From contig CAYVYK010000011.1 in NCBI GenBank assembly GCA_964455675.1, forward strand, positions 47,222-67,221: a stretch of 20,000 nucleotides of DNA, read 5' to 3'. The notes beneath the pieces were generated by a model. The model saw only the letters and a list, made by a program, of their open reading frames with translations, ran no database searches and was not told the DNA's origin. This document shows positions 3,972 to 20,000 of the stretch, piece after piece. Each line of letters opens with the position of its first letter. Positions within the stretch are counted from its first letter, which is position 1. Source of the stretch: an uncultured Methanosarcinales archaeon. Its GTDB lineage: Archaea; Nanobdellota; Nanobdellia; Woesearchaeales; CAYVYK01. Both the position numbers and the translations under genes were made by a program.

Positions 3972-3972
3972 A

Positions 3973-5019: not shown

Positions 5020-5035
5020 CGTTTCACCTGGGTTA

Positions 5036-5423: not shown

Positions 5424-5665
5424 GCGGTTGGCCAGTGGCTCGTGCTTATTTTCTATATAGTAAATATTATACAAAAAAATAATGACCGTGTGCGCGAAGG
5501 GTTCGCAATCATCCCTCACGCGGACAAACAGCGTCTCTCAGCGACATGTTAATCGCCACGCGACAAAGAAACATCGCAGCACACTTCACCCCGCGGTGAA
5601 CTGTACTATTGGAGATGAGAGACACTACAAAGTCAGAAAGTAGATGTGACCCAACCTACCGGGAT

Positions 5666-5797
5666 TTACACATTCCGTCGCCTCAACCGAAGAAGAAGGC
5701 AGATGAGAATGGCCAGCCCGATGGGTACAACGATGTAGTGAAGCCAATCCACCCATGTGGGTGTTGAAAGGGCTTTCCAAAAACTCTCCCAGTTCAT
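5666..5797 (-). CDS. 43-aa single-TM membrane protein directly downstream of a Cys-rich secreted protein (candidate immunity/accessory peptide)
   Basis: Own translation: MNWESFWKALSTPTWVDWLHYIVVPIGLAILICLLLRLRRRNV*. AAGGAG RBS; TM helix with a positive-inside tail. Below the ORF-track length cutoff. Confidence 0.75.
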   Translation of the reverse strand: MNWESFWKALSTPTWVDWLHYIVVPIGLAILICLLLRLRRRNV

Positions 5798-5856
5798 ATC
5801 ACACTCCTTAGTTTTCGAGGATCCAGACTTGACTCTTCGGATTTCAGTTATCGGGC

Positions 5857-6819
5857 TTAAGGAACTGGATTACCCTGCTGCGGATCACCCTGAACAGGCT
5901 TTACGCTGCAGTGTTTCTTGTAGCAATCGTCCTTGCACCAGTCATACTGCAATCCCGCGGCAGTCTTGTCGTGATCGTAATTGTTCGCACAGATTGAGAG
6001 GCCAGTGTACAAGCAGGCAAGCAGGACGCAACCACACACTGCAAGACCAAGCCAGAGCCCGCCACCACCACGCTTCAGGAGGCTTGCGAGACAGGCGACA
6101 ACACCAGCAACACCGCAGGTCAGCATGCAGTTCTCAACACAGCCCTGCAAGCGGTTTCCGGCAAGCGTCATTGCGCGGTTGTACTGGTCCTTGCAATCAT
6201 CGACGCATTCAGTGTATGCGGCAAGGTCACGGCAGTACATTTGAGCGTTCGTGCCTGCTTTCTCAACCAAATTCATCGCCAGGGGAACAAAGGAACGCTC
6301 ACGCTCGGGAGGGCTAGCCTGCCAGACATCCATGCAGAAAGTGACGCCGGAGACCAAACAATACACATCACCGAGATCCACCTTCAAGACAGCAGAACCA
6401 ACCTCCGTCTGAAGATCGATGATGTCCAGCTGCTGATCGGCCGGAAGATCCATCCAACTGATGTCCTCAGCAAAGGACTCAACAACCGCTTCGAACGAGG
6501 CAGACGGATCAGTCACGCGAGACATGATGAGCACATAAGCTTCATCAAAGTCCGCATCCGCGTTCAAAACAATGTCCTCGCGGGCATTGTATTCCTCAAA
6601 TCCCACGAAGCCCCGCTCCGAGAGCAGACGGAAGAATTCCTCCTGGAACTGGACGAGCTCGGGAGGAAACGCAATGACGGGATCGCCTGCGTCCTCCACA
6701 ACTCCCATGGGAATTCTCGCCGGAGGATCGCCGAACAAGGGCTGCATGCTGAATGGCATGAGCAAAAGAACCAGGAAAATCCCTTTCCACAACCGATACG
6801 TCATGAGAGAATTTGACAT
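5857..6819 (-). CDS. Secreted protein with acidic N-terminal region and Cys-rich hydrophobic-hairpin C-terminal domain (halocin C8/bacteriocin-like)
   Basis: GAAGGAG RBS before MSNSLM, signal-peptide-like N-terminus, and 14 Cys in the last ~130 aa flanking GVAGVVACLASLLKRGGGGLWLGLAVCGCVLLAC. Confidence 0.7.
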   Translation of the reverse strand: MSNSLMTYRLWKGIFLVLLLMPFSMQPLFGDPPARIPMGVVEDAGDPVIAFPPELVQFQEEFFRLLSERGFVGFEEYNAREDIVLNADADFDEAYVLIMSRVTDPSASFEAVVESFAEDISWMDLPADQQLDIIDLQTEVGSAVLKVDLGDVYCLVSGVTFCMDVWQASPPERERSFVPLAMNLVEKAGTNAQMYCRDLAAYTECVDDCKDQYNRAMTLAGNRLQGCVENCMLTCGVAGVVACLASLLKRGGGGLWLGLAVCGCVLLACLYTGLSICANNYDHDKTAAGLQYDWCKDDCYKKHCSVKPVQGDPQQGNPVP

Positions 6820-6927
6820 GACTACTACTCCTTCTCGAAATGGGCACACGTGCCCGAACACACATCTACCGACGGCATTTCCACACCATGCGGAAAACAA
6901 AAACCGCTCGGCAGTTCCTTCCCATCC

Positions 6928-6964
6928 AAAAAGGGAAGCCGATCATGTGACTGATCGGCTTCCC
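6928..6964 (-). terminator. Intrinsic terminator
   Basis: Perfect 13-bp stem gggaagccgatca/tgatcggcttccc followed by TTTTT on the minus strand. Confidence 0.85.
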
Positions 6965-6992
6965 ATGCTACACACTCAGTCATTCCTCCAAT

Positions 6993-7403
6993 CTAGGAGG
7001 GCGGGAGACGCATCTTGCTCAATTCGCCTGCGCCCTGCAGAATGATGTGGTTGAAGGCCGCTTGCGCGATCTGCAGACAGGTCACCTCCCAGAGCCGGTT
7101 CTTCACCATGAGGGAGACGAAGTCGACCTGAGCTGAGAGGCACAGCTCGACATCGCGGCGGATCGACTTGAGCTCATCGATCAGCTTCACGACATCAGGG
7201 AGAGTGAGGATCGGCTGCGCCTTGTGCTGCTCCATGTACTCGAGGACTTCCCGCATGCCGCCCGTGAATACCTCAAGGCCCGTAACGTCACGACCGTCGA
7301 TGGCCTTGCGTCGATCAGGAGAACGCTTAACGTCACGATTGAGTAGATCTGTGAGCGCCTGGAAGTCCTCGACTTCTTTTTTGAATCCTTCAACGTCCGG
7401 CAT
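6993..7403 (-). CDS. Hypothetical helical protein (136 aa)
   Basis: AAGGAGA RBS, ends just before the terminator, no family recognised. Confidence 0.75.
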   Translation of the reverse strand: MPDVEGFKKEVEDFQALTDLLNRDVKRSPDRRKAIDGRDVTGLEVFTGGMREVLEYMEQHKAQPILTLPDVVKLIDELKSIRRDVELCLSAQVDFVSLMVKNRLWEVTCLQIAQAAFNHIILQGAGELSKMRLPPS

Positions 7404-7514
7404 TGGAGCATCTCCTTTTACTAGTGCCGGCTCGTCCGCGCGCCGCCCACCGAGGGAGGACCGAACGAGAACAATAGAACCACGGTATTATGATAGTTCT
7501 CCGGTGACCGCTGT

Positions 7515-7718
7515 TCACATGCCGATCAGGCGACTGATGAACCGCCAACTCACCCACAGCAGCCCGAGAACCGTTGTCCCGAACAGCAGGATGAGGAAGA
7601 CGAGCACACACCACTGCAGTCCCGTCAAGCGCGGCAGTGGCGCTTCCGAAATCGATTCACACGCCGGACAGAACTCCGCATCTTCCGGCAGTTCCGCACC
7701 ACACTCTTCACATTGCAT
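7515..7718 (-). CDS. Zinc-ribbon membrane protein
   Basis: MQCEECGAELPEDAEFCPACES (CxxC-x10-CxxC) followed by one TM helix. AAGGAG RBS. Confidence 0.8.
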   Translation of the reverse strand: MQCEECGAELPEDAEFCPACESISEAPLPRLTGLQWCVLVFLILLFGTTVLGLLWVSWRFISRLIGM

Positions 7719-7766
7719 GTGGAACTCCTTGTACTACCCGCCAGACCGGAGGGAAGTTGTGGCAGT

Positions 7767-8105
7767 TCAGCTACAGGGTTTCGTGCACTCGACAGAGAGA
7801 TCGAGCAGCACGCCATCGATCCGCAAGAACGGCTTGATGCGCTCGGCGACCACCTGTAGGTCTTCACGATTCTGCGCGAACACAACTCCGTAGCGCGTCG
7901 GCGTGAGCACGCACTTGTCACGAACACGAACACACCTCGTGTCACAGAATGCGAACTCAACACTCTGCTCAAAAGGCAGCCCGTGCAGCGCCGTCAGGAT
8001 GCACTCGAGCAGGGATGTCGCGTCATCGCCCGGAACACCGTTGACGAACGCAAGATGAATCTCGATCAACATTCGACGAATCTCGAACAACATTCGATCG
8101 CCCAT
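7767..8105 (-). CDS. Hypothetical protein (112 aa)
   Basis: GGAG RBS, co-oriented with its neighbours, no family recognised. Confidence 0.6.
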   Translation of the reverse strand: MGDRMLFEIRRMLIEIHLAFVNGVPGDDATSLLECILTALHGLPFEQSVEFAFCDTRCVRVRDKCVLTPTRYGVVFAQNREDLQVVAERIKPFLRIDGVLLDLSVECTKPCS

Positions 8106-8152
8106 ACTTGCTCCTATCCAGTCGTGCGAGACGGCAGGCCAATGAGGTTTTG

Positions 8153-8201
8153 AAAATAAACGGGCCGCCGCACATCAGGTGAATCAGCGCGGCGGCCCGT
8201 T
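8153..8201 (-). terminator. Intrinsic terminator after the GHKL ATPase gene
   Basis: Stem aacgggccgccgc (8159-8171)/gcggcggcccgtt (8189-8201) followed by a T-rich tract on the minus strand. Confidence 0.75.
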
Positions 8202-8238
8202 CAGTAAGACAGACGCAGCCATCGTCATGTACCAATGG

Positions 8239-9774
8239 CTATTTACCTGGCTGGAATCGCATCGCATCCACGTAGGGAAGCATCCATGACTCCGCGACGT
8301 CGATGAAGCCAGGGACTTGCGCTTGATTTGGCGCCATCAGACCTGCAAGCCTCGTCGCCACGAGGAACCCGATGTACTGCTGCAGAGCGACGTTTCCATG
8401 CTGCTCCGCATCGATCATGTCACGATGGGTGAGGTTGATGACGATCGCGCGAGCTTCGTCACCACCAGAACCGAGGCGAGCCCGCCAGAGATTCCCATGA
8501 GTCTCGTCGCCCTCCTTGAAGACGATCCGAAGCTGGGAACTCTGGACCTTATACGCCCGAGGCTTACGCGCCTTTGGCTCAGCACGCCGAATACTTGGCA
8601 CCTCGGCCTTCTTGCGCACCTTCTTGCGCGTCTGCGTTGGTGGAGGTTCGGGCGTTCGATCGGGCTTCTTGAAGAATTCGGGAACGAGCTCGGGATCCTG
8701 GAAGATGTCACTCTCCAGATTCCGGATGACGCGCTCCGCGACCTCCATGAGGCGATCTTCCTCGCGCTGCTCCTTCAAGCGCTCAAGCCAAGGCTCTCCG
8801 TAGTCGACGACGAACTGAAGAACCGCGTCCTGAAACGCCTCAAGACCCTCGTTGACCTCAAAGTTCGTGCGGTCAGGATCGATCGTGCAGAAATCCACGC
8901 GGATGCGACCCTGCACATAACCGCATCCGAAGAAGTGACTGACCGCGGGCCAGACGTCACGAAGGTTCGACAGCGGGAACGAATACTTCCCCTGGTGGTC
9001 GACGAGCACGCGCGGATTCTTCACCTGCGTGACCGTGAGGTAGACCTCAAAGGACACCGTACCGCGCGGAGTCTCGATGAGGAATTCCTCGCGTCTCCCA
9101 GGAAACTCGATGGGGTGGACGATCTTTTCGACGGGAACTCCTTTCTCGTCCACAACCTCAATCCGGATCTTGATGCCGGAATCGCGGATTCTTCCCGGGA
9201 ACGTCTGGGCGATAGTATCGACGATCTCGTCGAGCAGGTTTGGGATCTTCGCGAGCCGCCGGATGTGAGCGCCGTCAATATCCTGAACATCAATGTAGCT
9301 CGACATCCCGGCATAACGGTCCTTGAACCCCCAGCTCACAGGCAAGTGCTTGCCAGCGAATTCGACGTCCCTTTGGCCCGCAACCGCCTCACGGTCCAGA
9401 ATGATCTCGAAGAACGGGGGCGGATTGTGGACCGTTGCATCGCGCGTGATGATGCGGTACTTGGCTCCAACAGCGAGAGGCGCGAGATTACCGATGCCCT
9501 TCTCGCCGATGTCGTCATCACCCTTCTGACGCTGACCGACGCAGTTGATCCGACGAGTGATCTCCTCAAGCGACGCGCCAAGACCATCATCCCAGGACTG
9601 GAGACGCCGACGCTTGAGATTCAAGCGGATAAGCGCAGTCTGCGCCTTCTTGTCGAGGAGATTCTGCACGAGCTCCAAGATGACCTGTTCGAGCGTTCCA
9701 TACTTCTGAGCGAGGTAGAGGGCAACGTTGCCCTGGTGGTACCCAAGTTTAACACCGAACGTTTGTTCAATCAA
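8239..9774 (-). CDS. GHKL (HATPase_c_3, MORC-like) ATPase
   Basis: Bergerat motifs ELVQNLLD, WDDGLG, IGEKGIGNLA and a later T (IITR); S5-like region GYVQGRIRVDFCTIDPDRTNF; MORC-like C-terminal IVINLTH. Probable TTG start at 9774 after AAGGAGGT (the ORF track starts at GTG 9795). Confidence 0.85.
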   Translation of the reverse strand: MIEQTFGVKLGYHQGNVALYLAQKYGTLEQVILELVQNLLDKKAQTALIRLNLKRRRLQSWDDGLGASLEEITRRINCVGQRQKGDDDIGEKGIGNLAPLAVGAKYRIITRDATVHNPPPFFEIILDREAVAGQRDVEFAGKHLPVSWGFKDRYAGMSSYIDVQDIDGAHIRRLAKIPNLLDEIVDTIAQTFPGRIRDSGIKIRIEVVDEKGVPVEKIVHPIEFPGRREEFLIETPRGTVSFEVYLTVTQVKNPRVLVDHQGKYSFPLSNLRDVWPAVSHFFGCGYVQGRIRVDFCTIDPDRTNFEVNEGLEAFQDAVLQFVVDYGEPWLERLKEQREEDRLMEVAERVIRNLESDIFQDPELVPEFFKKPDRTPEPPPTQTRKKVRKKAEVPSIRRAEPKARKPRAYKVQSSQLRIVFKEGDETHGNLWRARLGSGGDEARAIVINLTHRDMIDAEQHGNVALQQYIGFLVATRLAGLMAPNQAQVPGFIDVAESWMLPYVDAMRFQPGK

Positions 9775-10186
9775 CGGCCACCTCCTTGCGGTCACTTAGA
9801 ACCCGCTCCCTCATCATTTCGCTCGTGATCGCACGAACTGCCTCGAGGAACTCATGGAATGACCCGCCGAGATCTTGTCGCAGACGCACCCGATAGGTGC
9901 TATCATCCTCGTTGACGAGTTGTCTCAGGAGCGGGGTCAGCACAATGATCTGATCACCAGCGAGCTTCACCACACGATCCAAGATTGGGGATTTGTGCTT
10001 ACCGGCAAGCAGATCGTCCAGTAACTTGCGGTACTTCTTCGCGGGCTTCAAACCCTTCAGCCAGTTCTGGACAGTTGTTCGAGGAACTGCTTTTCCGGTC
10101 TCCTTTCGGAGGTGCACGACGAGTGCGGCAGCTCCCTGTAGGTCGTGCTGGGCCATATAGGCCTCGAGCCTTTCCTGGTACATCAT
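9767..10186 (-). CDS. XRE-like helix-turn-helix protein
   Basis: GKAVPRTTVQNWLKGLKP resembles an XRE recognition helix. ATGA overlap with the upstream gene; overlaps the start of the GHKL gene. Confidence 0.65.
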   Translation of the reverse strand: MMYQERLEAYMAQHDLQGAAALVVHLRKETGKAVPRTTVQNWLKGLKPAKKYRKLLDDLLAGKHKSPILDRVVKLAGDQIIVLTPLLRQLVNEDDSTYRVRLRQDLGGSFHEFLEAVRAITSEMMRERVLSDRKEVAVD

Positions 10187-10470
10187 GACCCTCGCACTGG
10201 CATGATCAAGACCTTCGGCCGATGGGTACCATGCCATACTATTACACCATCGACCATGATTCGGTAGTGCTGCTTTGTTTCCTCCCGTCGCTTTTTGCGA
10301 TGGAGCTGCTGGCACTCCCGAACCAACCGTTGTTCGGACACTCTCCTGCCCCGAAACCGCAGACGAAAATTTGCCAACAGACTCGCACGACGATCAGTGT
10401 CGTACGGGTGCATCGTCGGCGGTCTCACAGCAAGGAGAAACTCTGTTTCTCTTTGAGTGAGTTTCATCAT
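10183..10470 (-). CDS. Small basic protein, short paralog of 10516-11091
   Basis: LLAVRPPTM...FRLRF...RLVREC and IMVDGVIVWHGTHRPKV match segments of the adjacent gene. Confidence 0.75.
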   Translation of the reverse strand: MMKLTQRETEFLLAVRPPTMHPYDTDRRASLLANFRLRFRGRRVSEQRLVRECQQLHRKKRREETKQHYRIMVDGVIVWHGTHRPKVLIMPVRGS

Positions 10471-10515
10471 GATACATTCCCTCGGAGGACCGCGCGACCC
10501 TACGCGATGGCGCAA

Positions 10516-11091
10516 TCAGAGCGTCTCGGTCGTGACTGATCTGAGCTCGACGTTCGGACGCTTGGAACCTGACCACACCTGGACGCCGTCCACGAGGAGA
10601 ATGAAGGATGCTCCCGGTGCGCATGCCATGACTTTCGCTTCGGCCGCCGGAGCTACGGGAATTGCCCCACGCTTCCGCAGGACGTAGAAGTGCTGCTGGA
10701 TACTGCGCGACGTGACCTTGCAGCCGAACGTTCGGTTGAACTTTGCCGCGCGTCGCTTCCACGACCCGCTCCGCTCGCCGAGCCCGATGATGAACTGATC
10801 CTGCTCGGGAGTGTACGTGTGCAGCGGTCCGCGGCCGACCTTGTTATTGATCACTTTCGCGACCCTGGCCTTCGGCGGCACAATCGCGACGGTCTTGCCG
10901 TGCATCTTCCAACACTTGCGGATGAGGGAAGAGTCCTTGACCCACGCCGGAACGGTGGGAAACCGGGCACGGAATGCAGCAACGAACGCCTCACGCGCCG
11001 CGCCGTCTACAGTCTTCATCGAGGGCGGCGTCACGGAAGCCAGATACTCCATCTGAACTCTTGAGTAACGATATTTCTTGTGTTTCTTCAT
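10516..11091 (-). CDS. Basic DNA-binding protein with Myb/SANT-like HTH repeats
   Basis: YTPEQDQFI...SWKRRAAKFNRTFGCKVTSRSIQQHF is a Myb-like pattern, with a related N-terminal repeat (YRYSRVQMEYL...FRARF). AAGGAG RBS. Confidence 0.7.
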   Translation of the reverse strand: MKKHKKYRYSRVQMEYLASVTPPSMKTVDGAAREAFVAAFRARFPTVPAWVKDSSLIRKCWKMHGKTVAIVPPKARVAKVINNKVGRGPLHTYTPEQDQFIIGLGERSGSWKRRAAKFNRTFGCKVTSRSIQQHFYVLRKRGAIPVAPAAEAKVMACAPGASFILLVDGVQVWSGSKRPNVELRSVTTETL

Positions 11092-11252
11092 GAGTGACTC
11101 CTTGTTCTTCACAGGCAAGGCCTGCACCAATTACCGTTGACCGTTTACGACCTTATATCACGCACCAGGTGCAGAAGATGCACCAAGGGTTAGAAGAATG
11201 GAACCCGAGGCGATCACCAACTCAGGATGATCGACCAAGGAAAGAACTTCCC

Positions 11253-11291
11253 AAAAAAAGGAGCCGAGGCGCGGGGATGCACCCCGGCTCC
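11253..11291 (-). terminator. Intrinsic terminator downstream of the M50 gene
   Basis: ggagccg...cggctcc stem followed by T7 on the minus strand. Confidence 0.7.
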
Positions 11292-11422
11292 ATGGAAGCG
11301 CGACCCGTCGACAACCGCGCATGCCAACAAGTCAACTCCTCTCCCTTCCTTCCTCCTCCAATTTTTTGAAGAGATCGGAGCGCGCCTCCGAGATGTGCGC
11401 GGTAGGAGTTTACTCTCAAATG

Positions 11423-12268
11423 TCAGAGCTTAGGTACGGCTGGAATTGTCTGCACCATGATACCCACAAAGGCGGCAATCATCCCCAGGTAGACTCCAAG
11501 GACGAGAAAAATCTGCCACCAGCGCATTGCAGGGGGGGCCTCCACCTTTCTCCGTGCATCATCCAGAATTCCGTGAGCGATGAGAGCGTCCGGAGTGCTC
11601 AGACGATCCTCATGCTGCGCCAAGAATTTGCCCATGCGCTCAAGAATTCTTGGCGCAACGAACAGATTCTCATAGTCCCGTCTGATACTGCTGAGCGACA
11701 TCAAGGCGAGCAGCCCGAAAAACATGGTGTTCCTCGGACTGCCCAGATATACTGCCAGCAGGAAGAGTCCGCCGATAGCGGCCACCTTCAGACTGAACCC
11801 GAGAACGCGGTGCACGGAGTAGGCAACCTCACTAACGATTCCGCCGCCATCGAGCGGATAGATCGGCAGGAGGTTGAAGAGGTTGATGAGCGCGCAGATC
11901 AGCGCTGCCCTTGCACAGAAGATGTTGCCAGTGTGCACGAAAATCTGCGCGAGCACAACGCAAAACAGGAAACCAAACATCGGACCCATGAGGTAGATGA
12001 TAGCTTCCTGCCAGCGAGTCTTGGCACGCTCGGCACTCAGCGCGACGCCCCCCATGAAGGGAATCATGAACACGCCGAGCGTCTTTATCTTGAAGAATCG
12101 GGACGCGGACAAGTGGCCCTGCTCGTGCACGAAGATCATGAGGAGCAGGATCCCGCCCGTTGCCCAGCCGAATAGAAGCGCGTAGGCAAGGAGCGATGCC
12201 ACGAAGAGAACAAGCTTGGTCCGCAAAGCGTGTTCCTTCACCTGCGTTGCCATGAATGACATACTCAT
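11423..12268 (-). CDS. Site-2 protease (peptidase M50 family), bacterial type
   Basis: HEQGH, FMIPFMGG, YLMGP and NLFNLLPIYPLDGG motifs; multiple TM helices. Confidence 0.92.
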   Translation of the reverse strand: MSMSFMATQVKEHALRTKLVLFVASLLAYALLFGWATGGILLLMIFVHEQGHLSASRFFKIKTLGVFMIPFMGGVALSAERAKTRWQEAIIYLMGPMFGFLFCVVLAQIFVHTGNIFCARAALICALINLFNLLPIYPLDGGGIVSEVAYSVHRVLGFSLKVAAIGGLFLLAVYLGSPRNTMFFGLLALMSLSSIRRDYENLFVAPRILERMGKFLAQHEDRLSTPDALIAHGILDDARRKVEAPPAMRWWQIFLVLGVYLGMIAAFVGIMVQTIPAVPKL

Positions 12269-13083
12269 CCTCGATCCTGCGGCTTCGCAATCCAGGCAGA
12301 CCAGAGCGGAAAGCTCAGGCCTTCGCGCACGAGGGTGGCAAGCACGGGAAGCCGCAGGGTATCGTGCTTACCGACCGAACCTTTCGATGGCGCCCCGTGA
12401 ACACGCAGCTTCAGCATCCGCACGATGTCCGCGATGACAGCGAGCGGATTTCGTTCGCCAGGTTCACGCTGAACTGCCATACCGCACATCCAGTCGGCAG
12501 GAAGCAGGACATCTGCGTCGAGCGACGGAATCGAGATTGCACGCGAGGTCAGAGGCTGGAGGGATGCCAGCACAGCCTCTGACAACTTCCACACATTCTT
12601 CAGTTCGGGACTCTCCTCGCAATGCGTCAGGTACAGCGTGTCCTTGTCACCAAGAGGGATCGCGACGACGACTCCGGGCTGTACCGCGGACCGAAAGACT
12701 GACGCATCGCGCAGCAGCAGCATCTTGCCATCCGCGATCGCCTCGCCCACGCACACGTCAAGTGACAGAACGACAGCGGCGAGGAGATAGGGCGGCTCGG
12801 ATGCGCAAAGATAGGACCGCACCGGCGCGCCGATCTGATCCGCCACAAACTCGCAGAGAAAATCGCGGTTATAGCCAACCAGTACCTTCATCTCCGGAAT
12901 CAAAGTGAGAGAAGGCCTGCAGCGTGGAGCGAGCTGGGTCATGAAGTCCTGCTGCACAAACATTGCAGGACTGACGTTATCAGGGTACCAGTGGCACGTG
13001 CCGCCGACAAGACGCTCGACCGCGTTCACGATCGCAGCGGCGGAGTGCACCGATGTTCCGATGTTACGCTCTATTCCGATCAT
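12265..13083 (-). CDS. Hypothetical protein with degenerate serpin-like C-terminal half
   Basis: GGAGGT RBS before ATG 13083. VVAIPLGDKDTLYL, AISIPSLDAD..WMCGM and LRLPVLATLVREGLSFPLWSAWIAKP parallel serpin sheet B/C strands. ATGA overlap with the M50 gene. Confidence 0.6.
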   Translation of the reverse strand: MIGIERNIGTSVHSAAAIVNAVERLVGGTCHWYPDNVSPAMFVQQDFMTQLAPRCRPSLTLIPEMKVLVGYNRDFLCEFVADQIGAPVRSYLCASEPPYLLAAVVLSLDVCVGEAIADGKMLLLRDASVFRSAVQPGVVVAIPLGDKDTLYLTHCEESPELKNVWKLSEAVLASLQPLTSRAISIPSLDADVLLPADWMCGMAVQREPGERNPLAVIADIVRMLKLRVHGAPSKGSVGKHDTLRLPVLATLVREGLSFPLWSAWIAKPQDRG

Positions 13084-13130
13084 AGCACCTCCATGTTCAT
13101 CCCCTTGAAGCCGAATCAACACGCCACCTG

Positions 13131-13808
13131 CTAGTCCTTAGCCGTGTGCGCGTCCGCGATGGCGTCCTCGATACACACAAGCAGGAGCGCGTGGGGAAGC
13201 GAGATGCCGCTCTCGTAATCCACGATAGTGACGACGTAAGTATCGCCATCTACGAACGTGGCCTCGCGATCGACATCATAGTCGACGTTCCCCGCCAGGT
13301 CCTTGAGCTTGTGATTACTCCAGGCCATGTTGCCGTGCTTTTCCGAGCGGCCGACTTCCTTCTTGTCTGCGTCGTAAAAGTGGAAAACGTAGCTCAGTGG
13401 AGAGAACAAGCTGTCGAACGACTCCTCGCCGATGTGGCCGGTGACCTTGCCGCTGCCGTCGTAACAAATCGCGGCGCGGTTCCACTGAAAGAACCCCTTC
13501 TGCTCCTCCTCGCGAGCAATCACTTTGCCATCACTTGCCGCGAGCGTGAAGATGTCGCCGAAGGTTTTCCACGATTTACCCTTCACGGTGGCGACGATCT
13601 CCTTGTTGACAATGAGGTCGTAGTGCTTGCCAAAGGAGAAGCGCTTCTCGCGGACGGTGATCGACCTCGCCGCGAACAGCTTGTCCATCGGCTTGTCGGT
13701 GCAGACCGGGTAATCGTCGACGAACGCGTAGCCGACCACGCTGACCAGAATTATGATCGCGGGCACCAGAAGGATGAGGGACTTGCTCGATTTCATGCTG
13801 GATTTCAT
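13131..13808 (-). CDS. LURP-one / Tubby C-terminal / phospholipid scramblase-like protein with N-terminal membrane anchor
   Basis: ITVREKRFSFGKHYDL...VATVKGK...FTLAASDGKVIA repeated beta hairpins and a final hydrophobic helix (HALLLVCIEDAI). GAGGT RBS. Confidence 0.75.
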   Translation of the reverse strand: MKSSMKSSKSLILLVPAIIILVSVVGYAFVDDYPVCTDKPMDKLFAARSITVREKRFSFGKHYDLIVNKEIVATVKGKSWKTFGDIFTLAASDGKVIAREEEQKGFFQWNRAAICYDGSGKVTGHIGEESFDSLFSPLSYVFHFYDADKKEVGRSEKHGNMAWSNHKLKDLAGNVDYDVDREATFVDGDTYVVTIVDYESGISLPHALLLVCIEDAIADAHTAKD

Positions 13809-13891
13809 ATTTGATACCTCATGCGGGAACTTGCAGGGAGTTCCCGTACACCAAGGCACCCTGCTGCCTCTGTTGTTGATTCTGCTGTTGC

Positions 13892-15265
13892 CTATTCCGC
13901 GGACAACGCTTCTGCAGACAATGCGCGAGGCGCGTCCGGCTCAGGCATCTTAATCACGACTCGATTCTCTGCGACCTCACCACCCTCGCCAGAGAGTTCC
14001 CTCAGAATCGCAGCCTCCTCCGTAGAATCATCCGGCAGATGATCCACCACATTCGCGAGTGCGGCCATCGAACTTAGCTCATCCATCATCTCCTGCGTGC
14101 TGGCGGCGACGGCCGTCAGTTCCTGCATTGACGGCAGAGCGACTTCCCTTGCCACCCTGCTCGTCTGAAGATGAAAGATGTGCGTACCCAAGATGTCAAG
14201 CTGCTGACCGTACACATTCGCGAAGTTCCGTTGACGACGAAGAGTGGAACGCACCTCGCGGATCTTCGACGCCGCGCGACGTTTATCCAGTACTGAGGTA
14301 GTAGCCGCGCCGGCAGACAGCAGATCCTGCTCTTCGTTCTCCAGCAGGTCAATCTGCTGCAGCGCCTCATCACGCCGTCGGGCAATGAGGACGCGAACCT
14401 CAGAAAGATGGTTCACCTTGCGGGCGAGACGCGCGTCCTTGGAAACGATTAGACGCACGCTCTGACCGAGGCGCGCAAACAAGCGATGTGACTTCGCCTC
14501 AGGGGCGCCGCGATACAGCAGAGAAACTCCTGAAGCAGTGGAGACATGGAGCTCGCGATCCTTCTCTGTAGCAGCATGCACGAGATCCACGGCAACAGCC
14601 GATGGAACCTCCAAGCACTCCGCCACCTCCTGGATCGTAACGCCGCCAGTGAGAAGCTGAGAGTTGAGCTCGCTGATCGCCTGCGCAGCACCCTCTCGAT
14701 TCGCAACGGAGGGATCGAAGAGCGCAAGCAAAGCGGGGTTAATGCTGCGGTCAAGCGACAGCACCTTCCAGTGCTCGTCGACGAGCACCAAGGAGACGCT
14801 CTTTGGGACCAGCATTCGAGCACAATCCTCGACGTCCTGCTCGAAACCGGACGGGCTGAAGACGACGATGCACTGCGGCGTTTTACACGACACGACCACG
14901 CGGTTGAGGTGATCTAAGAAGTCCCTGCAGCCAACCTCGTCGGGACGATCATGGTCGAGATAGAGACGAGGAGGAGCGAGGACTGACACTGTGAGGATGC
15001 TCCGCACATACCCGCCACCATGCAGCGGACTCCAACCGAGATGAAACATGGAGAATCCGCGACTTAGCGGCAGACTATCGATTACGTCCTGGTCGTACAC
15101 GCGCCGATCGATCAGTTCAGCACGAAGATCCTCGGCAAAGTCGAAGAACACCCGCTCGCGACGACCCGGAAGCAGACGTGCAGACGCAGAGCGCAGATTT
15201 TCCTCAAGCCCTTTGAGGAACTCGTCCTCCTTTTTACGAAACCCCCTTGTCACTGTACCATTCAT
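13892..15265 (-). CDS. Multidomain protein: REase-like alpha/beta domain, winged HTH and C-terminal Snf7/PspA (ESCRT-III)-like helical hairpin
   Basis: CIVVFSPSGFEQD (Mrr-like strand-GF), GGVTIQEVAECLEVP (wHTH), and a coiled-coil hairpin RRRDEALQQIDLLENEEQDLL...KRRAASKIREVRSTLRRQ...QQLDIL followed by acidic helices ending EEAAILRELS. Confidence 0.6.
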   Translation of the reverse strand: MNGTVTRGFRKKEDEFLKGLEENLRSASARLLPGRRERVFFDFAEDLRAELIDRRVYDQDVIDSLPLSRGFSMFHLGWSPLHGGGYVRSILTVSVLAPPRLYLDHDRPDEVGCRDFLDHLNRVVVSCKTPQCIVVFSPSGFEQDVEDCARMLVPKSVSLVLVDEHWKVLSLDRSINPALLALFDPSVANREGAAQAISELNSQLLTGGVTIQEVAECLEVPSAVAVDLVHAATEKDRELHVSTASGVSLLYRGAPEAKSHRLFARLGQSVRLIVSKDARLARKVNHLSEVRVLIARRRDEALQQIDLLENEEQDLLSAGAATTSVLDKRRAASKIREVRSTLRRQRNFANVYGQQLDILGTHIFHLQTSRVAREVALPSMQELTAVAASTQEMMDELSSMAALANVVDHLPDDSTEEAAILRELSGEGGEVAENRVVIKMPEPDAPRALSAEALSAE

Positions 15266-15335
15266 GATGAACACTCCCAATACGCTGGATAGTGCCCAGC
15301 GATGACGAGTAACAGGTTAATTGATACGCATCTCG

Positions 15336-17759
15336 CTAGCGGTCGCGACGCAGCAGATCCGCAACCACTCGAGGGATACCAAGAGCACCACGAAGACCTC
15401 GGCTCGAGCGCGCGGCAGTCCACAGCTGCCGAACAGGCCCTCTCTGCATATACTCACCACCTCCCTCGGCGAGGAGATCACCCAAGCCAACCTCATTCAG
15501 AAGCCCAGGCAGGTTCCCATCGCCGATGCCAGGAGTCAGGCGGTGCTTGCGATCATACCGGAAGCATGCCGCGCCACCCTGCTGCTCGAGCTGGGCAGCC
15601 AGCATCTGGATTTGGGTGGCGAGGATGACACTCGCGCCGTGCTGCTTGAGCCGCTGCAAGAGCGCGTTGCCCGCAATGTAGCCAGCCTGCTCCTGCGTAC
15701 CAAACCCAAGCTCGTCGAGCAAGACGACCACAAGACGGCCGTCGACGTTCTTGATGCCCGCGAGCACGGATGCTGTTTTCTTCCAGAGGAGGGAGCACGT
15801 GGACGCGCTCTCCTTCTCGGTTGTCTTGACGAACACAACACCGAGGACTTGCTTGATGTTCGTCTTGAAGTAGCTGCCGAAGATGGGAAGCCCGCTCATA
15901 GCAGACCAGAGGTCGAGACCAATCGTCTTGAGCGCTACACTCTTGCCGCCGCCGTGCTCGCCCGTGATGACGAGAATATCACCGTTCAAGTCGGGAAGAG
16001 CGCCGATCGGCCGGGGCCGCTGATTCTCGCCGAGCACGAGGAGCTGGATCGGAAGCAGATCCTTGAACGCAACGACGTGATCGTCACCATCCTGGATGTC
16101 AGCGAAGCAGATCGAATGCGGCAGCTTCTTCTCGCGCAGATCGTCCTGCATCTGGTGATACCGATGGATGATGCTCGAAACGTGGCAGAGCGTCTGCATC
16201 GCACGATCGAAGAAACTCCTCGCATCTTGCGCGGCCTCGTAAAGCGCATGAAGCGCGGGATCGGTGTAGAGATGCTTTAGGGCAAACCACCGAAAGTACT
16301 GATCAGTGCCTGGGGACTTTGCGCCAAACTGCGTATAGAACAGATCTCCTGCGGACTTCTGCAGACGCGCCGTGAGGGCGGCGAGGCTTAGCAGGCGAAC
16401 GCGCTCGGTGCGCTGATTCAGATATTCCCGACGACAGCTCTGCATCGCCGCCTGCTGCAGGGTCGTGTACCCGGCGAAGTCCTCACCGAAGTTAGCCTCG
16501 TAGCGTTCCTCCTGGACAACCGGATCGAGGCTGAAAATCTCGACCTTGAGGCCGCCATGATCATAGGCGAAGCGAACCTTGAGCTTGCTTTTGTTCAGCA
16601 TCTCGCACAAGCTCTCGTTCCAACGAACGGACTCCCGCAGTTTCGTCAAAACCGCAGTCATCACCTCGAGAACCGTGCAGTCAGGGACCTTCGTGATCAC
16701 CATCCGCTCGCACACACTGCGACGATGTTCCTCATTCGCAATGTCAATGCGACCCCTCTTCCACTCGCTCAGGAACGGCACCCAGGACTTGGGATGAAGC
16801 ACACTGAATCCCTCCGACCACTCGGGATAGGGAATCACCGACGCACTCGTGAGGTCGGAAGCGTACTTGCGATGACCACTCGCCGTGCAGCCGATCGGAG
16901 TTAGGACGGCCAGGGTGAACTCTGGGGGCTTCGTCCAGAGAGAGCGATCCGATATACGCCTATCACCCATCTCCAGATAGACTTCACGCTCCCCGGCTGG
17001 TGCGGATGTACGCTTCGACGGCGTGGGCTTTTGATCACGGCGCCGAATGGGCACGTCATCGTCGCCCGAACCGCCATCATCGTCCGTGCCAGCAGAATCC
17101 GTGTCCTCCTCATCGGTAGTGGTGAGTGTGGTCCCTTTTTTCTGGAGTTCATCATCAGAGAGCCTTGTGAAGAGGCGAGCGCCTGTACCAAGTGTGAACT
17201 CAATCGTGCCAGCCATGACGGACATCTTCTCGACCTCGCCCGTGATCGCGACGGCCATCTGGGATTCGAGAGGCTCAATGCAGGAGGACATCCTCAGCGT
17301 CGCGGCGAACTCCCGAACGTTGGCCGGAACCTGGCTGCGCACCTTGCTCATCAGCTCGAGGAATGCGTGCACACGGCGCCAGTGCGGATTGTGAGGAACC
17401 AATGAGAAATACGTCAGAAACGCATCGGCAGATTCAGGAAGCGGAGCAGTGCGCACACCTTCACGCATGATGAAGTCCATGAGATCGGGATTTTCGTGCA
17501 GAAAACGACAGAGGGCGTGGCGACGGCGGATCTCGTCCTCAACGCAGATCCCGAAACTTTCACGGAGCGGGGAATTCTCCAGGCCCAGGGACTCGAGGAG
17601 CATCTCCGTCGGGAGGTCATCAGCGTTGATGACGTGAAACCTCTCCTCCCGACGGATGTCAGTCCGCCAGAACGGAATGTCCGGATACTCGATTTCAGGG
17701 GGAAGGATGGGTTGAATGTCCATCCTTGGCTGCAACTCATCGACTGGTTTTGTGTCCAT
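15336..17759 (-). CDS. Large protein with C-terminal MutS-domain-V-type P-loop ATPase (degenerate)
   Basis: ILVITGEHGGGKSVALKTIGL...AMSGLPI, VVLLDELGFGT and VILATQ motifs. AGGAGG RBS before MDTKP (17759). Confidence 0.82.
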   Translation of the reverse strand: MDTKPVDELQPRMDIQPILPPEIEYPDIPFWRTDIRREERFHVINADDLPTEMLLESLGLENSPLRESFGICVEDEIRRRHALCRFLHENPDLMDFIMREGVRTAPLPESADAFLTYFSLVPHNPHWRRVHAFLELMSKVRSQVPANVREFAATLRMSSCIEPLESQMAVAITGEVEKMSVMAGTIEFTLGTGARLFTRLSDDELQKKGTTLTTTDEEDTDSAGTDDDGGSGDDDVPIRRRDQKPTPSKRTSAPAGEREVYLEMGDRRISDRSLWTKPPEFTLAVLTPIGCTASGHRKYASDLTSASVIPYPEWSEGFSVLHPKSWVPFLSEWKRGRIDIANEEHRRSVCERMVITKVPDCTVLEVMTAVLTKLRESVRWNESLCEMLNKSKLKVRFAYDHGGLKVEIFSLDPVVQEERYEANFGEDFAGYTTLQQAAMQSCRREYLNQRTERVRLLSLAALTARLQKSAGDLFYTQFGAKSPGTDQYFRWFALKHLYTDPALHALYEAAQDARSFFDRAMQTLCHVSSIIHRYHQMQDDLREKKLPHSICFADIQDGDDHVVAFKDLLPIQLLVLGENQRPRPIGALPDLNGDILVITGEHGGGKSVALKTIGLDLWSAMSGLPIFGSYFKTNIKQVLGVVFVKTTEKESASTCSLLWKKTASVLAGIKNVDGRLVVVLLDELGFGTQEQAGYIAGNALLQRLKQHGASVILATQIQMLAAQLEQQGGAACFRYDRKHRLTPGIGDGNLPGLLNEVGLGDLLAEGGGEYMQRGPVRQLWTAARSSRGLRGALGIPRVVADLLRRDR

Positions 17760-17770
17760 AAAAAAACCTC

Positions 17771-18130
17771 CTAGAGCGCGAGGAGCGCTCCTGAAAGAAA
17801 GGCAGTCAGCCACACCAGATAGGCGCGGACGCTCCATGTTCTGAAGTGGCGCCGCCAGGATTCATGGTTTGTCAACCATACTCCCGCAGCCCAGCATGCA
17901 TGAAGTCCCATGATGAGCAATGCAGGTAAACCAAGCACTGTGTGAGCGGATCGACCGACAGAGCTTGATGTGTGCAACGTAAACATGGCAGCAGTACCTC
18001 CAAGATCACAGAGGAAACCACACCAGAAGCACACAATGATCCACGCGCGCAACCCAATCCGTCGCTCACAAAACACAGAGAGAGAGTAACATGCGCACGC
18101 GAGAATCATCAATAGCACAGGGACGAACAT
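17771..18130 (-). CDS. HsmA / TIGR03987-family 4-TM membrane protein
   Basis: CYSLSVFCER...FWCGFLCDLGGTAAM...HTVLGLPALLIMGLHACWA...FRTWSVRAYLVWL matches the family pattern as I recall it, including conserved His residues. Confidence 0.78.
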   Translation of the reverse strand: MFVPVLLMILACACYSLSVFCERRIGLRAWIIVCFWCGFLCDLGGTAAMFTLHTSSSVGRSAHTVLGLPALLIMGLHACWAAGVWLTNHESWRRHFRTWSVRAYLVWLTAFLSGALLAL

Positions 18131-18194
18131 GTATCACCATCCTGAGGTTATACCTCCTCTCAACAAACTATTGCTCTTCTGCTAAAAGGAGGCC

Positions 18195-18223
18195 CGGGGA
18201 GCGGGCAGCTCTGCCAGCTCCCC
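18195..18223 (-). terminator. GC-rich hairpin after the Zn-ribbon gene (possible terminator)
   Basis: ggggagc-g-ggcag-ct-ctgcc-a-gctcccc, with TTTT a few nt later on the minus strand. Confidence 0.5.
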
Positions 18224-18234
18224 AAGCCAAGGAG

Positions 18235-18666
18235 TTAACCGCACGCAACAGCAGTGCCGCACTCCGGACAGCGACCTGAGGCGTTACCCGTCAGATCGTA
18301 GCCGCAGTGCGCGCAGTGACCGACCTTCGGCCGCTGCCTGATGTCGACAACGACTGGCGCAAAAGCGCACACCATGACGAGCAAGCTTCCGACCTGCAGT
18401 GCACTCCGCAAGGACTCAGGCATCATGCCGTATGCAGCAGGCAGCGAGAGCGCAAGCGGGGCGAATGCACCGACCATCGCGTACTTGCTCATGCGACAGG
18501 CGAGACCGCTCGACATCAGAACGCCGCCCGCCATGATCAGCTGGATCAGCGGGAGCGTGGAGCCAACGCGAGCGACGCGAAACGGAGCGTCGAGTTCGGT
18601 GTACATGATGAAAAGTGCCCCGAATGTCAGAAGCAAGCCCACGATGAACATCACCACGTGTCGCAT
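18235..18666 (-). CDS. 4-TM membrane protein with C-terminal zinc ribbon (GHCxxCGYDLxGNxSGRCPECG)
   Basis: Four hydrophobic helices then CAHCGYDLTGNASGRCPECG. Starts 4 nt after the Cys-rich gene stop, with a GAGGTGA RBS. Confidence 0.85.
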   Translation of the reverse strand: MRHVVMFIVGLLLTFGALFIMYTELDAPFRVARVGSTLPLIQLIMAGGVLMSSGLACRMSKYAMVGAFAPLALSLPAAYGMMPESLRSALQVGSLLVMVCAFAPVVVDIRQRPKVGHCAHCGYDLTGNASGRCPECGTAVACG

Positions 18667-18670
18667 TGTT

Positions 18671-19645
18671 TCACCTCACAACCGAAGCCGGAGGACTGGA
18701 CGCGGATGATCCCGAGCCGCCCGAATTATTCACGGCAGCAATGCAGTCGTCGAGGTTGTGTTTGCACCAGGCCATCGCGTTATCGTACTGATCTTGAGCA
18801 GCGTCGACGGCACCTTCCCAGCTGTTCTGGCAGATCGTCGCACCGAGGACAGACTCAGTCCCCATGAGGCACAGACACCCGTACCAGCAGATGGGCGCGA
18901 ATGGACCCCCAGCGGTACATCCAAGACATGTTGACTGCAGTGCGACGCCGAGGCCGACGGCGCCCATGCACAGCCACCAGTCATCGCTCGCACCCTCGAG
19001 GTCCTCGTCGAGCTCGTTCTGGGCGTTATCGCGGCACTGGTGAAACTGGTTGTAGCAGGGAGCGAACTTGGGATTGAGTACGGACATGTTCAGGTCGCAC
19101 TCCAGCAAGGAACGCCGACGGTCGGCCTGGTCGGTCGTCAGAATTCCTTTCACTAGCAGATACGACCACTGAACACCCAGGTCATCTGCCCAGGAGAACA
19201 GCACGCCGGTAAATGCGGCCTCGCCTTGACTGGTCGTAACGACGCCGCTACAGTTTCCGAAAAGGTAGTTACGAGCGCGCAGGTTCGCCTCGTCCTCGGG
19301 CGGAATGTCACCGAGCTGCAACAGGTCGTCGACGGTGAAGAGTTTCACCGTCAGCGGCTCGAAGAGAAACGTCTCCGGATTCTCGTAGTAGTTACGCCAG
19401 CCGTTTGAGACCTGACACGTCGATGGAACACCCTCGAGGTAGAGAGGAAGCTCCGAGCAGTACTCGTAGGGCGTCGTGAACACCGCGCAATACTGCGCCG
19501 CGATGTCGTCCAGTACTCCCGTCAAGAGGCTGTACTCCTCGGAAGTGATCGGGGCACCGGAGCAGTCCGTGTTTTGCGCCGGATAATCCGCACAGGCCAC
19601 GGACGAGAGTAACAATACAACCACGGTGATTTGTTTGCGTAACAT
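18671..19645 (-). CDS. Secreted (possibly lipo-) protein with Cys-rich hydrophobic-hairpin C-terminal domain (halocin C8/bacteriocin-like)
   Basis: GGGAG RBS before MLRKQITVVVLLLSSVAC, acidic N-region, and 12 Cys in the last ~140 aa around MGAVGLGVALQSTCLGCTAGGPFAPICWYGCLC. Confidence 0.72.
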   Translation of the reverse strand: MLRKQITVVVLLLSSVACADYPAQNTDCSGAPITSEEYSLLTGVLDDIAAQYCAVFTTPYEYCSELPLYLEGVPSTCQVSNGWRNYYENPETFLFEPLTVKLFTVDDLLQLGDIPPEDEANLRARNYLFGNCSGVVTTSQGEAAFTGVLFSWADDLGVQWSYLLVKGILTTDQADRRRSLLECDLNMSVLNPKFAPCYNQFHQCRDNAQNELDEDLEGASDDWWLCMGAVGLGVALQSTCLGCTAGGPFAPICWYGCLCLMGTESVLGATICQNSWEGAVDAAQDQYDNAMAWCKHNLDDCIAAVNNSGGSGSSASSPPASVVR

Positions 19646-19877
19646 GAAGGTTCTCCCTTGTCCCAGGGTTGAAAACACCGCTTTCCGCCCACTGCAGAAA
19701 GCAAGACTTCTGCCCTCGCTCGAAAACACAGCAGAGCTGTGAACCCATGGGATACGCTCGCTAGACACCTCCTTTCGCAACGCGGATTCGTTTCTCCGAG
19801 TCGCAGAAAATACTCTCATCCACGTCCTTGCACCGAGGGTGGTCGTACCACACGCGCTCTCGCCAGGATCATACACC

Positions 19878-19913
19878 AAAAAAGGTGTGCGGGAGATTTC
19901 TCCCCCGCACACC
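19878..19913 (-). terminator. Intrinsic terminator
   Basis: ggtgtgcggg/cccgcacacc 10-bp stem followed by T6 on the minus strand. Confidence 0.8.
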
Positions 19914-19935
19914 AAAGGGGACACTCAGCTACCCA

Positions 19936-20000
19936 TCACGCGGCGCAGGTAATCAGCCTACCGCATTCTGGACAGCGACCGGAAACGTTGCCCTTCAGGT
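19936..20000 (-). CDS. 3' end of another Zn-ribbon protein paralogous to 18235-18666 (partial)
   Basis: Own translation: ...LKGNVSGRCPECGRLITCAA*. Confidence 0.8.
   Translation of the reverse strand, partial: LKGNVSGRCPECGRLITCAA

Follow-up and report, generated by a model that had tools for sequence, protein, structure and literature searches.

A winged helix fused to a candidate ESCRT-III/PspA-like module: a protein family centred on Planctomycetota with a diverged copy in a DPANN archaeon

Introduction

ESCRT-III proteins (Snf7/CHMP4, PF03357) and the bacterial members of the same superfamily, PspA and Vipp1 (IM30, PF04012), are the closest described relatives in layout of the gene analysed here, which is located on the minus strand at 13892..15265 of a 20,000-nucleotide stretch of an archaeal contig (the window) and encodes a protein of 457 amino acids (P0001, the window protein). 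Passages of Makarova et al. 2024 (PMC10936438) describe archaeal and Asgard ESCRT loci with winged helix (wH) proteins of the ESCRT-II type, Ser/Thr kinases and SPFH proteins. In passages of PMC7619361, ESCRT-III is placed in all major archaeal lineages except DPANN, and a Vps4-like ATPase is said to appear absent in bacteria. Main-text passages of Ravi et al. 2024 (PMC11237479) link bacterial PspA and Snf7 proteins to AAA+ ATPases, report the transfer of Vps4-like ATPases to bacteria, and describe longer operons in which an ABC ATPase, a permease and a solute-binding protein are encoded. The Phycisphaerae, a group of Planctomycetota that matters below, lack FtsZ and divide in a manner resembling binary fission, according to a passage of PMC6952346.

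The window protein is very probably a diverged member of a family without a name, centred on Planctomycetota, in which a dead domain like those of restriction endonucleases (REases), a winged helix and an ESCRT-III/PspA-like module follow one another. The explanation favoured for the family, and held to be rather more probable than its opposite, is that a C-terminal module resembling the ESCRT-III/PspA superfamily (the C-module) is fused in cis to the winged helix and to a catalytically dead domain of the Mrr-type REase fold. Like Snf7/CHMP4 proteins, the family has the predicted helix order α0, α1–α2/3 hairpin, α4 and α5 with similar lengths, a basic core followed by an acidic C-terminal part, its best re-ranked structural matches within ESCRT-III, and a marginal match to α4–α5 of CHMP4B; like ESCRT systems, it is linked at the family level to a putative CdvC/Vps4-like AAA ATPase. 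Unlike ESCRT-III, no member reaches the Pfam threshold for Snf7, the module stands at the C-terminus of a fusion protein of 457–500 amino acids, the family is bacterial (Planctomycetota), and no recognised MIM motif was demonstrated in it.

The family also shares features with PspA and Vipp1. A weak profile–profile signal connected them, and the amphipathic helix of the family was similar to the start, M-x-(I/F)-F-(S/D)-R-(L/V), of 31 planctomycete PspA proteins. Unlike PspA, the family was not matched by PF04012, and hhalign probabilities ranged from 23 to 58%. To our knowledge, no PspA is known to be fused to REase-like and wH domains. The PspC and SPFH neighbours of the family are as in the Psp loci known from main-text passages of PMC11237479; in these passages, supplementary tables aside, the PspA–REase–wH architecture was not found, and the strings 'Planctomycet' and 'restriction endonuclease' each occurred zero times in the main text; overlap may exist in the supplementary tables. 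A description of the family or its operon was likewise not found in the parts seen of the literature on Phycisphaer* with ESCRT or on Planctomycetota with bacterial ESCRT-III, whose supplementary tables may list it. In the Menshen antiphage paper, ESCRT-III appeared in the reference list only.

Overall structure of the window protein

The frame at 13892..15280 on the minus strand was open for 462 amino acids when counted from a TTG codon in the list of open reading frames (ORFs). The ATG at 15265 gave 457 amino acids, a start that agreed with the N-termini in the alignment of family relatives, and the ORF at 13892..15265 is a real gene. Both the ORF and all the peptides quoted for it in the original prediction, an earlier reading of the letters alone, were present in the translation.

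AlphaFold2, supplied with 150 family sequences, gave a model with a mean predicted local distance difference test score (pLDDT) of 88.0 and a predicted template modelling score (pTM) of 0.76, and the prediction from the single sequence was poor (pLDDT 44.8), being confident for the hairpin only. The model was composed of a helix (residues 3–26), a mixed α/β domain (residues 35–182), a winged helix (residues ~190–252), short helices (residues 261–273), a long hairpin of two helices (residues 275–321 and 325–374), two further helices (residues 380–405 and 414–430) and a low-confidence tail. The long charged helical hairpin, the short acidic helices and the disordered tail that the original prediction had described were thus recovered in this model, the tail with low confidence. 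The features of the gene were as follows.

13892..15265, minus strand: whole gene, 457 amino acids and stop codon, with an alternative TTG start at 15280 (ORF list, translation and family N-termini)
15176..15265, minus strand: residues 1–30, N-terminal helix (residues 3–26) packing on the α/β domain (AlphaFold2 model, pLDDT 78–96)
14708..15175, minus strand: residues 31–186, α/β domain, Mrr-type REase-like, with the motif S137-x-x-G140-F141 and 'DPE' at residues 184–186 (near-invariant columns, hhalign, Mrr_cat)
14498..14707, minus strand: residues 187–256, winged helix-turn-helix
14435..14497, minus strand: residues 257–277, linker and amphipathic basic 'α0'-like helix (RLFARLGQSVR; hydrophobic moment 0.81, net charge +4)
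14144..14434, minus strand: residues 278–374, long helical hairpin (α1, residues 275–321; α2/3, residues 325–374)
13976..14143, minus strand: residues 375–430, acidic α4 (residues 380–405) and α5-like helices (residues 414–430) (AlphaFold2 model, charge, CHMP4B profile alignment and motif)
13895..13975, minus strand: residues 431–457, low-confidence tail (block-mean pLDDT 47–55, below 50 only at residues 447–451 and 454–457)

The window protein had no match in Pfam or NCBIfam at E ≤ 0.1, none in the PADLOC and PHROGs searches, and none when PDB sequences were searched with phmmer.

The C-terminal module

The family was examined with an alignment of 58 full-length relatives (A1), one of 58 C-modules (A3), one of 14 sequences (A4) and a larger family profile of 212 sequences. 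The hairpin (residues 278–374) was the most conserved part of the family, with the motif QQ(I/L)(N/D)(I/V)..TH(I/L)(H/F)(N/H)L, and a second motif of the α4/α5 region, S.EE.AIL.E(F/L), was present in 41 of the 58 members. In the model, the helices of the module were 47, 50, 26 and ~11–17 residues long and stood behind a short amphipathic helix, which in the window protein (residues 261–271) was basic and strongly amphipathic. The net charge was +10 for residues 257–374 and −13 for residues 380–457. A basic core and an acidic C-terminal part, as in ESCRT-III, were seen in the window protein and in 208 of the 212 family C-modules, in line with the basic-hairpin and acidic-tail pattern from which the earlier assignment had started.

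When the model was compared with the PDB by Foldseek, no chain was matched at E ≤ 1e-3, and Vipp1 (6zvr) was found with a probability of 1.00, a TM(target) of 0.61 and an E of 0.15 over 144 columns. When Foldseek's 1000 best chains were re-ranked with VIA-align, nine of the top ten belonged to the ESCRT-III superfamily, the exception being CT398. The scores were 9.5 for Asgard ESCRT-IIIB (9ftl), 9.4 for Vipp1 (8qbr, 117 residues aligned), 9.3 for Vipp1 (7o3x), 9.0 for SynPspA (9hzm) and 8.9 for CHMP1B (6tz9). The profile of the 58 C-modules, searched against 177,635 PDB sequences, matched CHMP4B (3um3_B) at E 0.014, with α4–α5 aligned on α4–α5. With 31 PspA genes taken from planctomycete genomes as a reference, hhalign of the same profile gave a probability of 58% (P 9.6e-5, 74 columns), and both reversed controls gave P 0.02. 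In the ESM Atlas the module adjoined nameless, mainly planctomycete clusters of ~200 amino acids (scores 0.93–0.94) and, at 0.89, a Lentisphaerota cluster with Pfam Snf7 in 16% of its members.

Several results weighed against a relationship to ESCRT-III. Generic helical hairpins scored equal to ESCRT-III in the unbiased structure search, and the predicted structure alone does not separate the two. Two designed coiled coils ranked above CHMP4B in the C-module profile search, the CHMP4B match weakened to E 0.65 with the full-length profile, a search that designed coiled coils likewise headed, and a tail profile made from Phycisphaerae only (A8) had no match in the PDB, CHMP4B included. The profile of 212 sequences lowered the PspA probability to 23% (P 8.9e-4; reversed, 0.033). 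The Pfam models Snf7 (PF03357) and PspA_IM30 (PF04012), by which the original prediction had proposed to recognise the module, did not match the window protein; the best Snf7 scorer in the family, P0142, reached 17.1 bits against a cut-off of 27.3. Weak Snf7 matches were seen in 3 of the 58 C-modules, and DUF489 (5 of 58) and other coiled-coil families were similar in this respect. Among 75 family members scanned, none had an above-threshold Pfam family in this region, and one carried an unrelated HisKA domain.

The generic hairpins of the structure search and the designed coiled coils of the profile search would be expected if the C-terminal part were a generic antiparallel dimerisation coiled coil, in a DNA-binding or nucleoid-associated regulator without a membrane-remodelling role. 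Foldseek's best rows, MukE/MukF and GntR/MarR regulators, point the same way, as does the resemblance of the wH domain to DNA-binding winged helix-turn-helix domains and ScpB. This explanation is considered unlikely. It leaves without a cause the amphipathic basic helix and the charge polarity kept in 208 of 212 modules, and also the stand-alone C-module paralogue and the recurrent CdvC-like AAA, SPFH and PspC genes that adjoin the family gene in Phycisphaerae. The original prediction was to fall if a generic coiled coil were all that matched, and by structure alone that outcome may still hold. The predicted helix order and the charge polarity of an ESCRT-III/Snf7/PspA-like module were found as proposed, whereas the structure search was unspecific and the profile matches marginal.

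The sequence, structure and charge results on the C-module agree in direction, each being marginal singly. Such evidence, weak piece by piece but convergent, gives the C-module a moderately better than even chance of being homologous to ESCRT-III. If so, the C-terminal ~190 residues would comprise an amphipathic α0, a basic α1–α2/3 hairpin, an acidic α4–α5 region and a tail. The basic face of α0 and the hairpin would bind the inner membrane leaflet and self-assemble in the manner of ESCRT-III and PspA, and the acidic C-terminal part could auto-inhibit the assembly, recruit partners, or both.

The gene block in Phycisphaerae

The Phycisphaerae loci of the family had a same-strand block of their own (L040:7500-14957 and the equivalent stretches of L002-L081), and this gene neighbourhood is the strongest support for the ESCRT-III/PspA reading. 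Neighbours were counted in loci with enough flank (48, 43 or 62 depending on the gene, with the ATPase scored within 6 kb downstream), and the counts are lower bounds because the ORF caller was crude and many loci were cut by contig ends. Upstream of the family gene were a GGDEF/HAMP protein, a small membrane protein and a Ser/Thr kinase with a zinc ribbon, the last in 47 of 62 loci. Downstream, a helical protein of ~202 amino acids was found in 30 of 48 loci. It was a paralogue of the C-module, with an hhalign probability of 84.7% (P 6.6e-6, 159 columns; reversed control 0.4%), and in one genome the neighbour protein matched the family profile at E 1.5e-25. A second helical protein of ~205 amino acids, with a Leu-rich amphipathic helix at its C-terminus (...LAGLRAELDSLK), was present in 25 of 48 loci, a single-AAA ATPase of 372 amino acids (CdvC/Vps4-like) in 29 of 48, and an SPFH/Band-7 protein of ~600 amino acids in 26 of 43. 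The paralogue, the ATPase and the SPFH protein occurred together in 15 of 43 loci. A PspC-domain ORF was found in three loci (Pfam E 1.5e-22), and ABC, FtsX and periplasmic-binding-protein genes flanked the block, which may be compared with the longer operons described in main-text passages of PMC11237479. The partners PspC and SPFH were found at the family level only, neither being present in the window.

The ATPase was aligned end to end by one NCBIfam model only, CdvC (protein residues 14–365 on profile positions 17–362 of 370, E 9.2e-67), and its first ~90 residues look MIT-like by eye. Other results on the block weighed against the favoured explanation. The CdvC score of 225 bits was far under the cut-off of 650, and the PAN and CDC48 models scored the same on the ATPase, covering the AAA core alone and also below their cut-offs. 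A profile of the ATPase N-terminal domain had no significant match to MIT domains, the nearest entry being chitin synthase 1 (2mpk, E 0.59); the profiles of both neighbouring ~200-amino-acid proteins found nothing in the PDB. In the five Phycisphaerae genomes of L040, L015, L024, L049 and L034, the block proteins had no Snf7 or PspA_IM30 match at E ≤ 1 above the cut-off. A complex prediction of the ATPase N-terminal domain with the family C-terminal tail (score 0.01, mark 0.32) was neither for nor against binding. The ranking of the ATPase against the PDB was set aside as uninformative, since two-domain Cdc48/p97 chains sum two matches.

The PspC and SPFH genes of the block can also be read as parts of a one-component membrane-stress switch of the PspA type, in which the module would sense or bind damaged membrane and free or sequester a wH/REase-like DNA-binding unit that regulates neighbouring genes. 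A single chain would then unite the regulator and the effector of a Psp system. PspA stands next to winged helix-turn-helix (PadR-like) regulators in many lineages, as stated in main-text passages of PMC11237479 and restated in PMC10936438. None of the same five Phycisphaerae genomes had a canonical PspA (PspA_IM30) or Snf7 above the Pfam cut-off, so that the family system could stand in for PspA; across the phylum, PspA above the cut-off was present in 49 of 201 sampled genomes. Such a switch is regarded as rather unlikely. The wH domain had no specific match of the PadR type beyond the common fold, and the CdvC-like ATPase with two helical proteins of ~200 amino acids, one of them a C-module paralogue, would fit a polymer-recycling machine better.

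Under the favoured explanation, the ESCRT-III/PspA-like fusion protein of Phycisphaerae would work with the C-module paralogue, the second ~200-amino-acid helical protein, the CdvC/Vps4-like ATPase, the SPFH protein and the Ser/Thr kinase, the ATPase presumably recycling the assembly. By analogy, the block has the appearance of an archaeal ESCRT system in bacterial form. The combination of kinase, wH, ESCRT-III, Vps4 and SPFH in Phycisphaerae parallels the archaeal ESCRT loci in passages of PMC10936438. Unlike these loci, the family has its winged helix fused to the ESCRT-III-like module and not in a separate ESCRT-II-type protein, and the part-by-part homology is a candidate one. A stronger proposal is that a clade of Phycisphaerae owns a true ATP-driven ESCRT-like machine, arisen in or transferred to bacteria, that serves membrane scission in division, vesicle formation or repair. 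It would consist of the Ser/Thr kinase, a cis-fused 'ESCRT-II-like wH plus ESCRT-III' nucleator, the C-module paralogue, a further candidate ESCRT-III-like subunit, the Vps4/CdvC-like ATPase and an SPFH scaffold. This stronger form is speculative and is rated improbable.

Were the C-module a true relative of ESCRT-III, a bacterial system would have the same parts list as archaeal ESCRT, and the family would have joined a winged helix and an ESCRT-III-like module in a natural 'Rosetta-stone' fusion, in which the proposed ancient partnership of wH and ESCRT-III would become directly testable in one polypeptide. For the FtsZ-less Phycisphaerae, the family would supply a definite candidate for a role in membrane scission or repair. 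It was present in 40 of 151 genomes sampled from the class around one family-bearing genome (E ≤ 1e-10) and therefore cannot be a class-wide division machine. If the ESCRT-like machine were real, no ESCRT-III-like gene would have been seen in a DPANN archaeon before the one in the window, which would be bacterial in origin. The value for the window itself is smaller, its gene being a diverged, partner-less copy in a foreign island of orphan genes.

The N-terminal α/β and winged helix domains

The mixed α/β domain contained the nearly invariant residues S137, G140 and F141, within the consensus 'SxSGF..A...A......vLxEP' of the 58-sequence alignment. The only globular family that recurred in searches was Pfam Mrr_cat (PF04471), matched weakly by 5 of the 58 members (best E 0.023). 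When family residues 28–186 were aligned by hhalign with 26 planctomycete Mrr_cat domains, the probability was 73% (P 3.1e-5, 50 columns), against 0.2% (P 0.38) for the column-reversed control. The alignment spanned the second, non-catalytic half of the domain alone and included, as in Mrr_cat, a strand, the motif (T/S)xSGF(T/S)..A, a helix and a strand with 'lvLvd/E'.

The Mrr_cat family is defined by the catalytic residues D...(D/E/Q)xK. Unlike Mrr_cat, the family does not align in the catalytic half and has no conserved acidic or lysine residues: in residues 60–136 of the 58-sequence alignment, no acidic or lysine column was conserved and the D...(D/E/Q)xK signature was not seen. Because just the non-catalytic half aligns and no acidic or lysine columns are conserved, the domain is presumably, on this comparison of sequences, a dead one of the Mrr-type REase fold. 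The REase-like fold named in the original prediction was in this way partly supported, and the winged helix that it had placed behind this domain was seen in the model at residues ~190–252, with the three-helix bundle and β-hairpin wing of a winged helix-turn-helix. In the favoured explanation, the REase-like and wH unit would be a built-in adaptor or nucleator, doing in cis the job that ESCRT-II wH proteins do in trans; alternatively, it might couple the state of the membrane to DNA binding. The sensor role and the polymerisation that the original prediction also put forward are putative.

Relatives and distribution of the family

Homologue searches by word index recovered the query alone or very few proteins, and the census of the family came from running HMMER in full against 1.84 billion cluster representatives. 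The window protein had 173 relatives at E ≤ 1e-3, 82 at E ≤ 1e-10 and 13 at E ≤ 1e-30, and its best non-self matches had 33–36% identity across almost the full length. The relatives keep the same three-part length and order, full-length ones being mostly 470–510 amino acids long, and with 173 relatives of the same domain order the layout of the window protein is more than chance. A pattern scan with the 14-sequence alignment over one genome per GTDB species found 181 relatives or loci. Among the titles of the best 80 of these 181 loci, 78 were Planctomycetota, Phycisphaerae or Planctomycetales and two were 'uncultured bacterium'; the few named members were titled 'hypothetical protein [Phycisphaerae bacterium]'. 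The bacterial character that the original prediction had given the fusion protein was thus traced to Planctomycetota. No relatives were found on the plasmids, phages or IMG/VR viral contigs searched.

Many matches of ~200 amino acids spanned residues 270–445 alone. Their reading as stand-alone ESCRT-III-like proteins was rejected for at least two (P0051 and P0070), which are fragments because their contigs are ~1 kb long and they cluster at 90% identity with proteins of 476–483 amino acids. A Met residue opened the C-module in 45 of the 58 full-length relatives and in all 14 sequences of A4 (the column at about residue 264 of the window protein), and gene callers begin the ~200-amino-acid family fragments exactly at this conserved internal Met. 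The residue may have been left behind by the gene fusion; alternatively, translation may also begin there and give an ESCRT-III-like isoform that stands alone. The C-terminal end of the family was conserved behind a variable Pro/Ala-rich linker, as ...R..(A/E)PEAG, PEAS or PEAT. EAG or EPG was the terminus in 23 of the 58 sequences of A1, and among 70 plus-strand family ORFs in planctomycete loci PEAS occurred 16 times and PEAT nine times. This end could act as a signal for docking or for processing.

The window copy and its island

The host genome (1.72 Mb, 25 contigs, 99% complete) had a guanine–cytosine (GC) content of 49%. The left part of the window encoded an archaeal RadA (450 bits, cut-off 259) and the start of an archaeal DnaG. 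From position ~5600 to the contig end the GC content was 55–60%, forming an island of 57–58% GC joined to archaeal DNA.

5600..20000, strand not assigned: high-GC (55–60%) island containing the gene and reaching the contig end (genome average 49%)

The junction was spanned by a contig of run X1 (window positions 3000–7554) and by one from a second sample within the same study (5221–10258). Read depth was similar on either side, and the junction cannot be put down to an error of one assembly; X1 may be the source sample. A second contig of the genome (C7) began with ~38 kb of the same composition and held a further patch; the end of the window contig (C11) and the start of C7 did not overlap, and both stretches are probably one island of at least 50 kb split by an assembly gap. 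No tRNA was found in the window and no integrase was seen, and between the two island borders there were no att-like direct repeats (longest exact match, 14 nt). In a freshwater metagenome run of a different study (X3), pieces of 151–178 nt were at least 95% identical to the island (window positions 6653–15499) and almost nothing of the archaeal flank was held; this coverage is too thin for interpretation.

The contents of the island were mostly orphan genes. Directly upstream of the window gene, a gene for 833 amino acids (15336–17837, minus strand) encoded only a C-terminal MutS_V-like ATPase (Pfam MutS_V E 1.5e-6, just under the cut-off; NCBIfam mutS2 8.5e-12 over residues 620–763), and the sole relative found besides itself was a MutS2 at E 3e-5. 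A protein of 518 amino acids (8239–9795, minus strand) had a GHKL ATPase N-terminus (HATPase_c_3, E 4.3e-7) and a sacsin-type P-loop domain (2.7e-5). Downstream of the window gene on the same strand were genes for a membrane-anchored protein of 242 amino acids, an orphan of 285 amino acids (12265–13122, minus strand) and an M50 metalloprotease of the site-2-protease type (11423–12268, minus strand; Pfam E 7.3e-17), the last two overlapping by 4 nt. In the ESM Atlas, the 285-amino-acid protein fell in nameless or inconsistent clusters only. These downstream genes may form a membrane-linked operon specific to the window copy.

The foreign island of mostly orphan genes, with its tight same-strand spacing, its MutS_V-like ATPase (Pfam E 1.5e-6; mutS2 8.5e-12) and its HATPase_c_3 domain (E 4.3e-7), would suit a conflict or defence island in which an Mrr-like nuclease-fold protein acts with the MutS-like ATPase (15336–17837) and the GHKL ATPase (8239–9795). 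PADLOC returned nothing for the window protein and the neighbours matched below threshold only, a catalytic D...(D/E)xK is not conserved in the family alignment, relatives were absent from the plasmids, phages and viral contigs searched, and the conserved context of the family elsewhere is entirely different. The absence of the MutS-like gene from all 80 family loci also argues against such an island, which is given very little credence.

Several observations set the window copy apart from the ESCRT-III/PspA-like system proposed for the family and weigh against carrying that proposal over to it. When 10 neighbour proteins of the window were compared with 80 planctomycete loci by tblastn, each was found in 0 of 80 within ~9 kb; the window protein itself, as a control, was found in 80 of 80. 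In the host genome, neither a second family member nor a paralogue of the neighbouring helical proteins was found, and PspA was missing too. An AAA partner of the Phycisphaerae type was found neither near the window gene nor elsewhere in this genome. The search for AAA ATPases near the gene, which had been put forward with the original prediction, was therefore rewarded in the family (29 of 48 Phycisphaerae loci) and not at the window copy, which lacks an AAA partner and a paralogue. In a FastTree phylogeny of 122 full-length members, the terminal branch of the window protein measured 2.04 substitutions per site and its position between the two main clades was unresolved. The protein has neither the conserved internal Met nor the terminal motif of the family and ends in ...LSAE. 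Among 60 relatives from the same order, all 60 lacked the gene.

In its DPANN host the window copy stands without partners, a diverged gene carried by a foreign island, and its present function is uncertain; the archaeon would have acquired it together with the island. The long branch, a best identity to any relative of 36%, the lost Met and terminal motif, the missing partner genes and the 60 same-order relatives without the gene would also agree with a horizontally transferred copy that is decaying or has no function, its ORF intact but the job of the family no longer done. This is quite unlikely in view of a frame open over all 457 codons, core motifs and charge polarity retained from the family, and an alignment-based model that is confident across the folded parts.

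Two observations were made on the second contig of the island. In its high-GC DNA, C7:27-2843 (minus strand) encoded a protein of 939 amino acids with major-vault-protein domains (MVP_shoulder, E 6.4e-18; Vault_3, 4.2e-8; Band_7, 2.7e-6; Vault, 1.3e-4), which is unusual in an island of a DPANN genome. At C7:21138-29941, a same-strand run encoded a VWA protein, an OmpA and solute-binding-like protein, a protein of 301 amino acids, a substrate-binding protein, an ABC ATPase and an AAA ATPase of 631 amino acids. The 301-amino-acid protein, interrupted by N's, had two transmembrane (TM) segments and a coiled coil, and its hhalign match to the family C-module was weak (33.8%, P 4.3e-4). The run resembles the 'PspA/Snf7 with TM segment + AAA+ + ABC + PBPB-OmpA' operons of main-text passages in PMC11237479.

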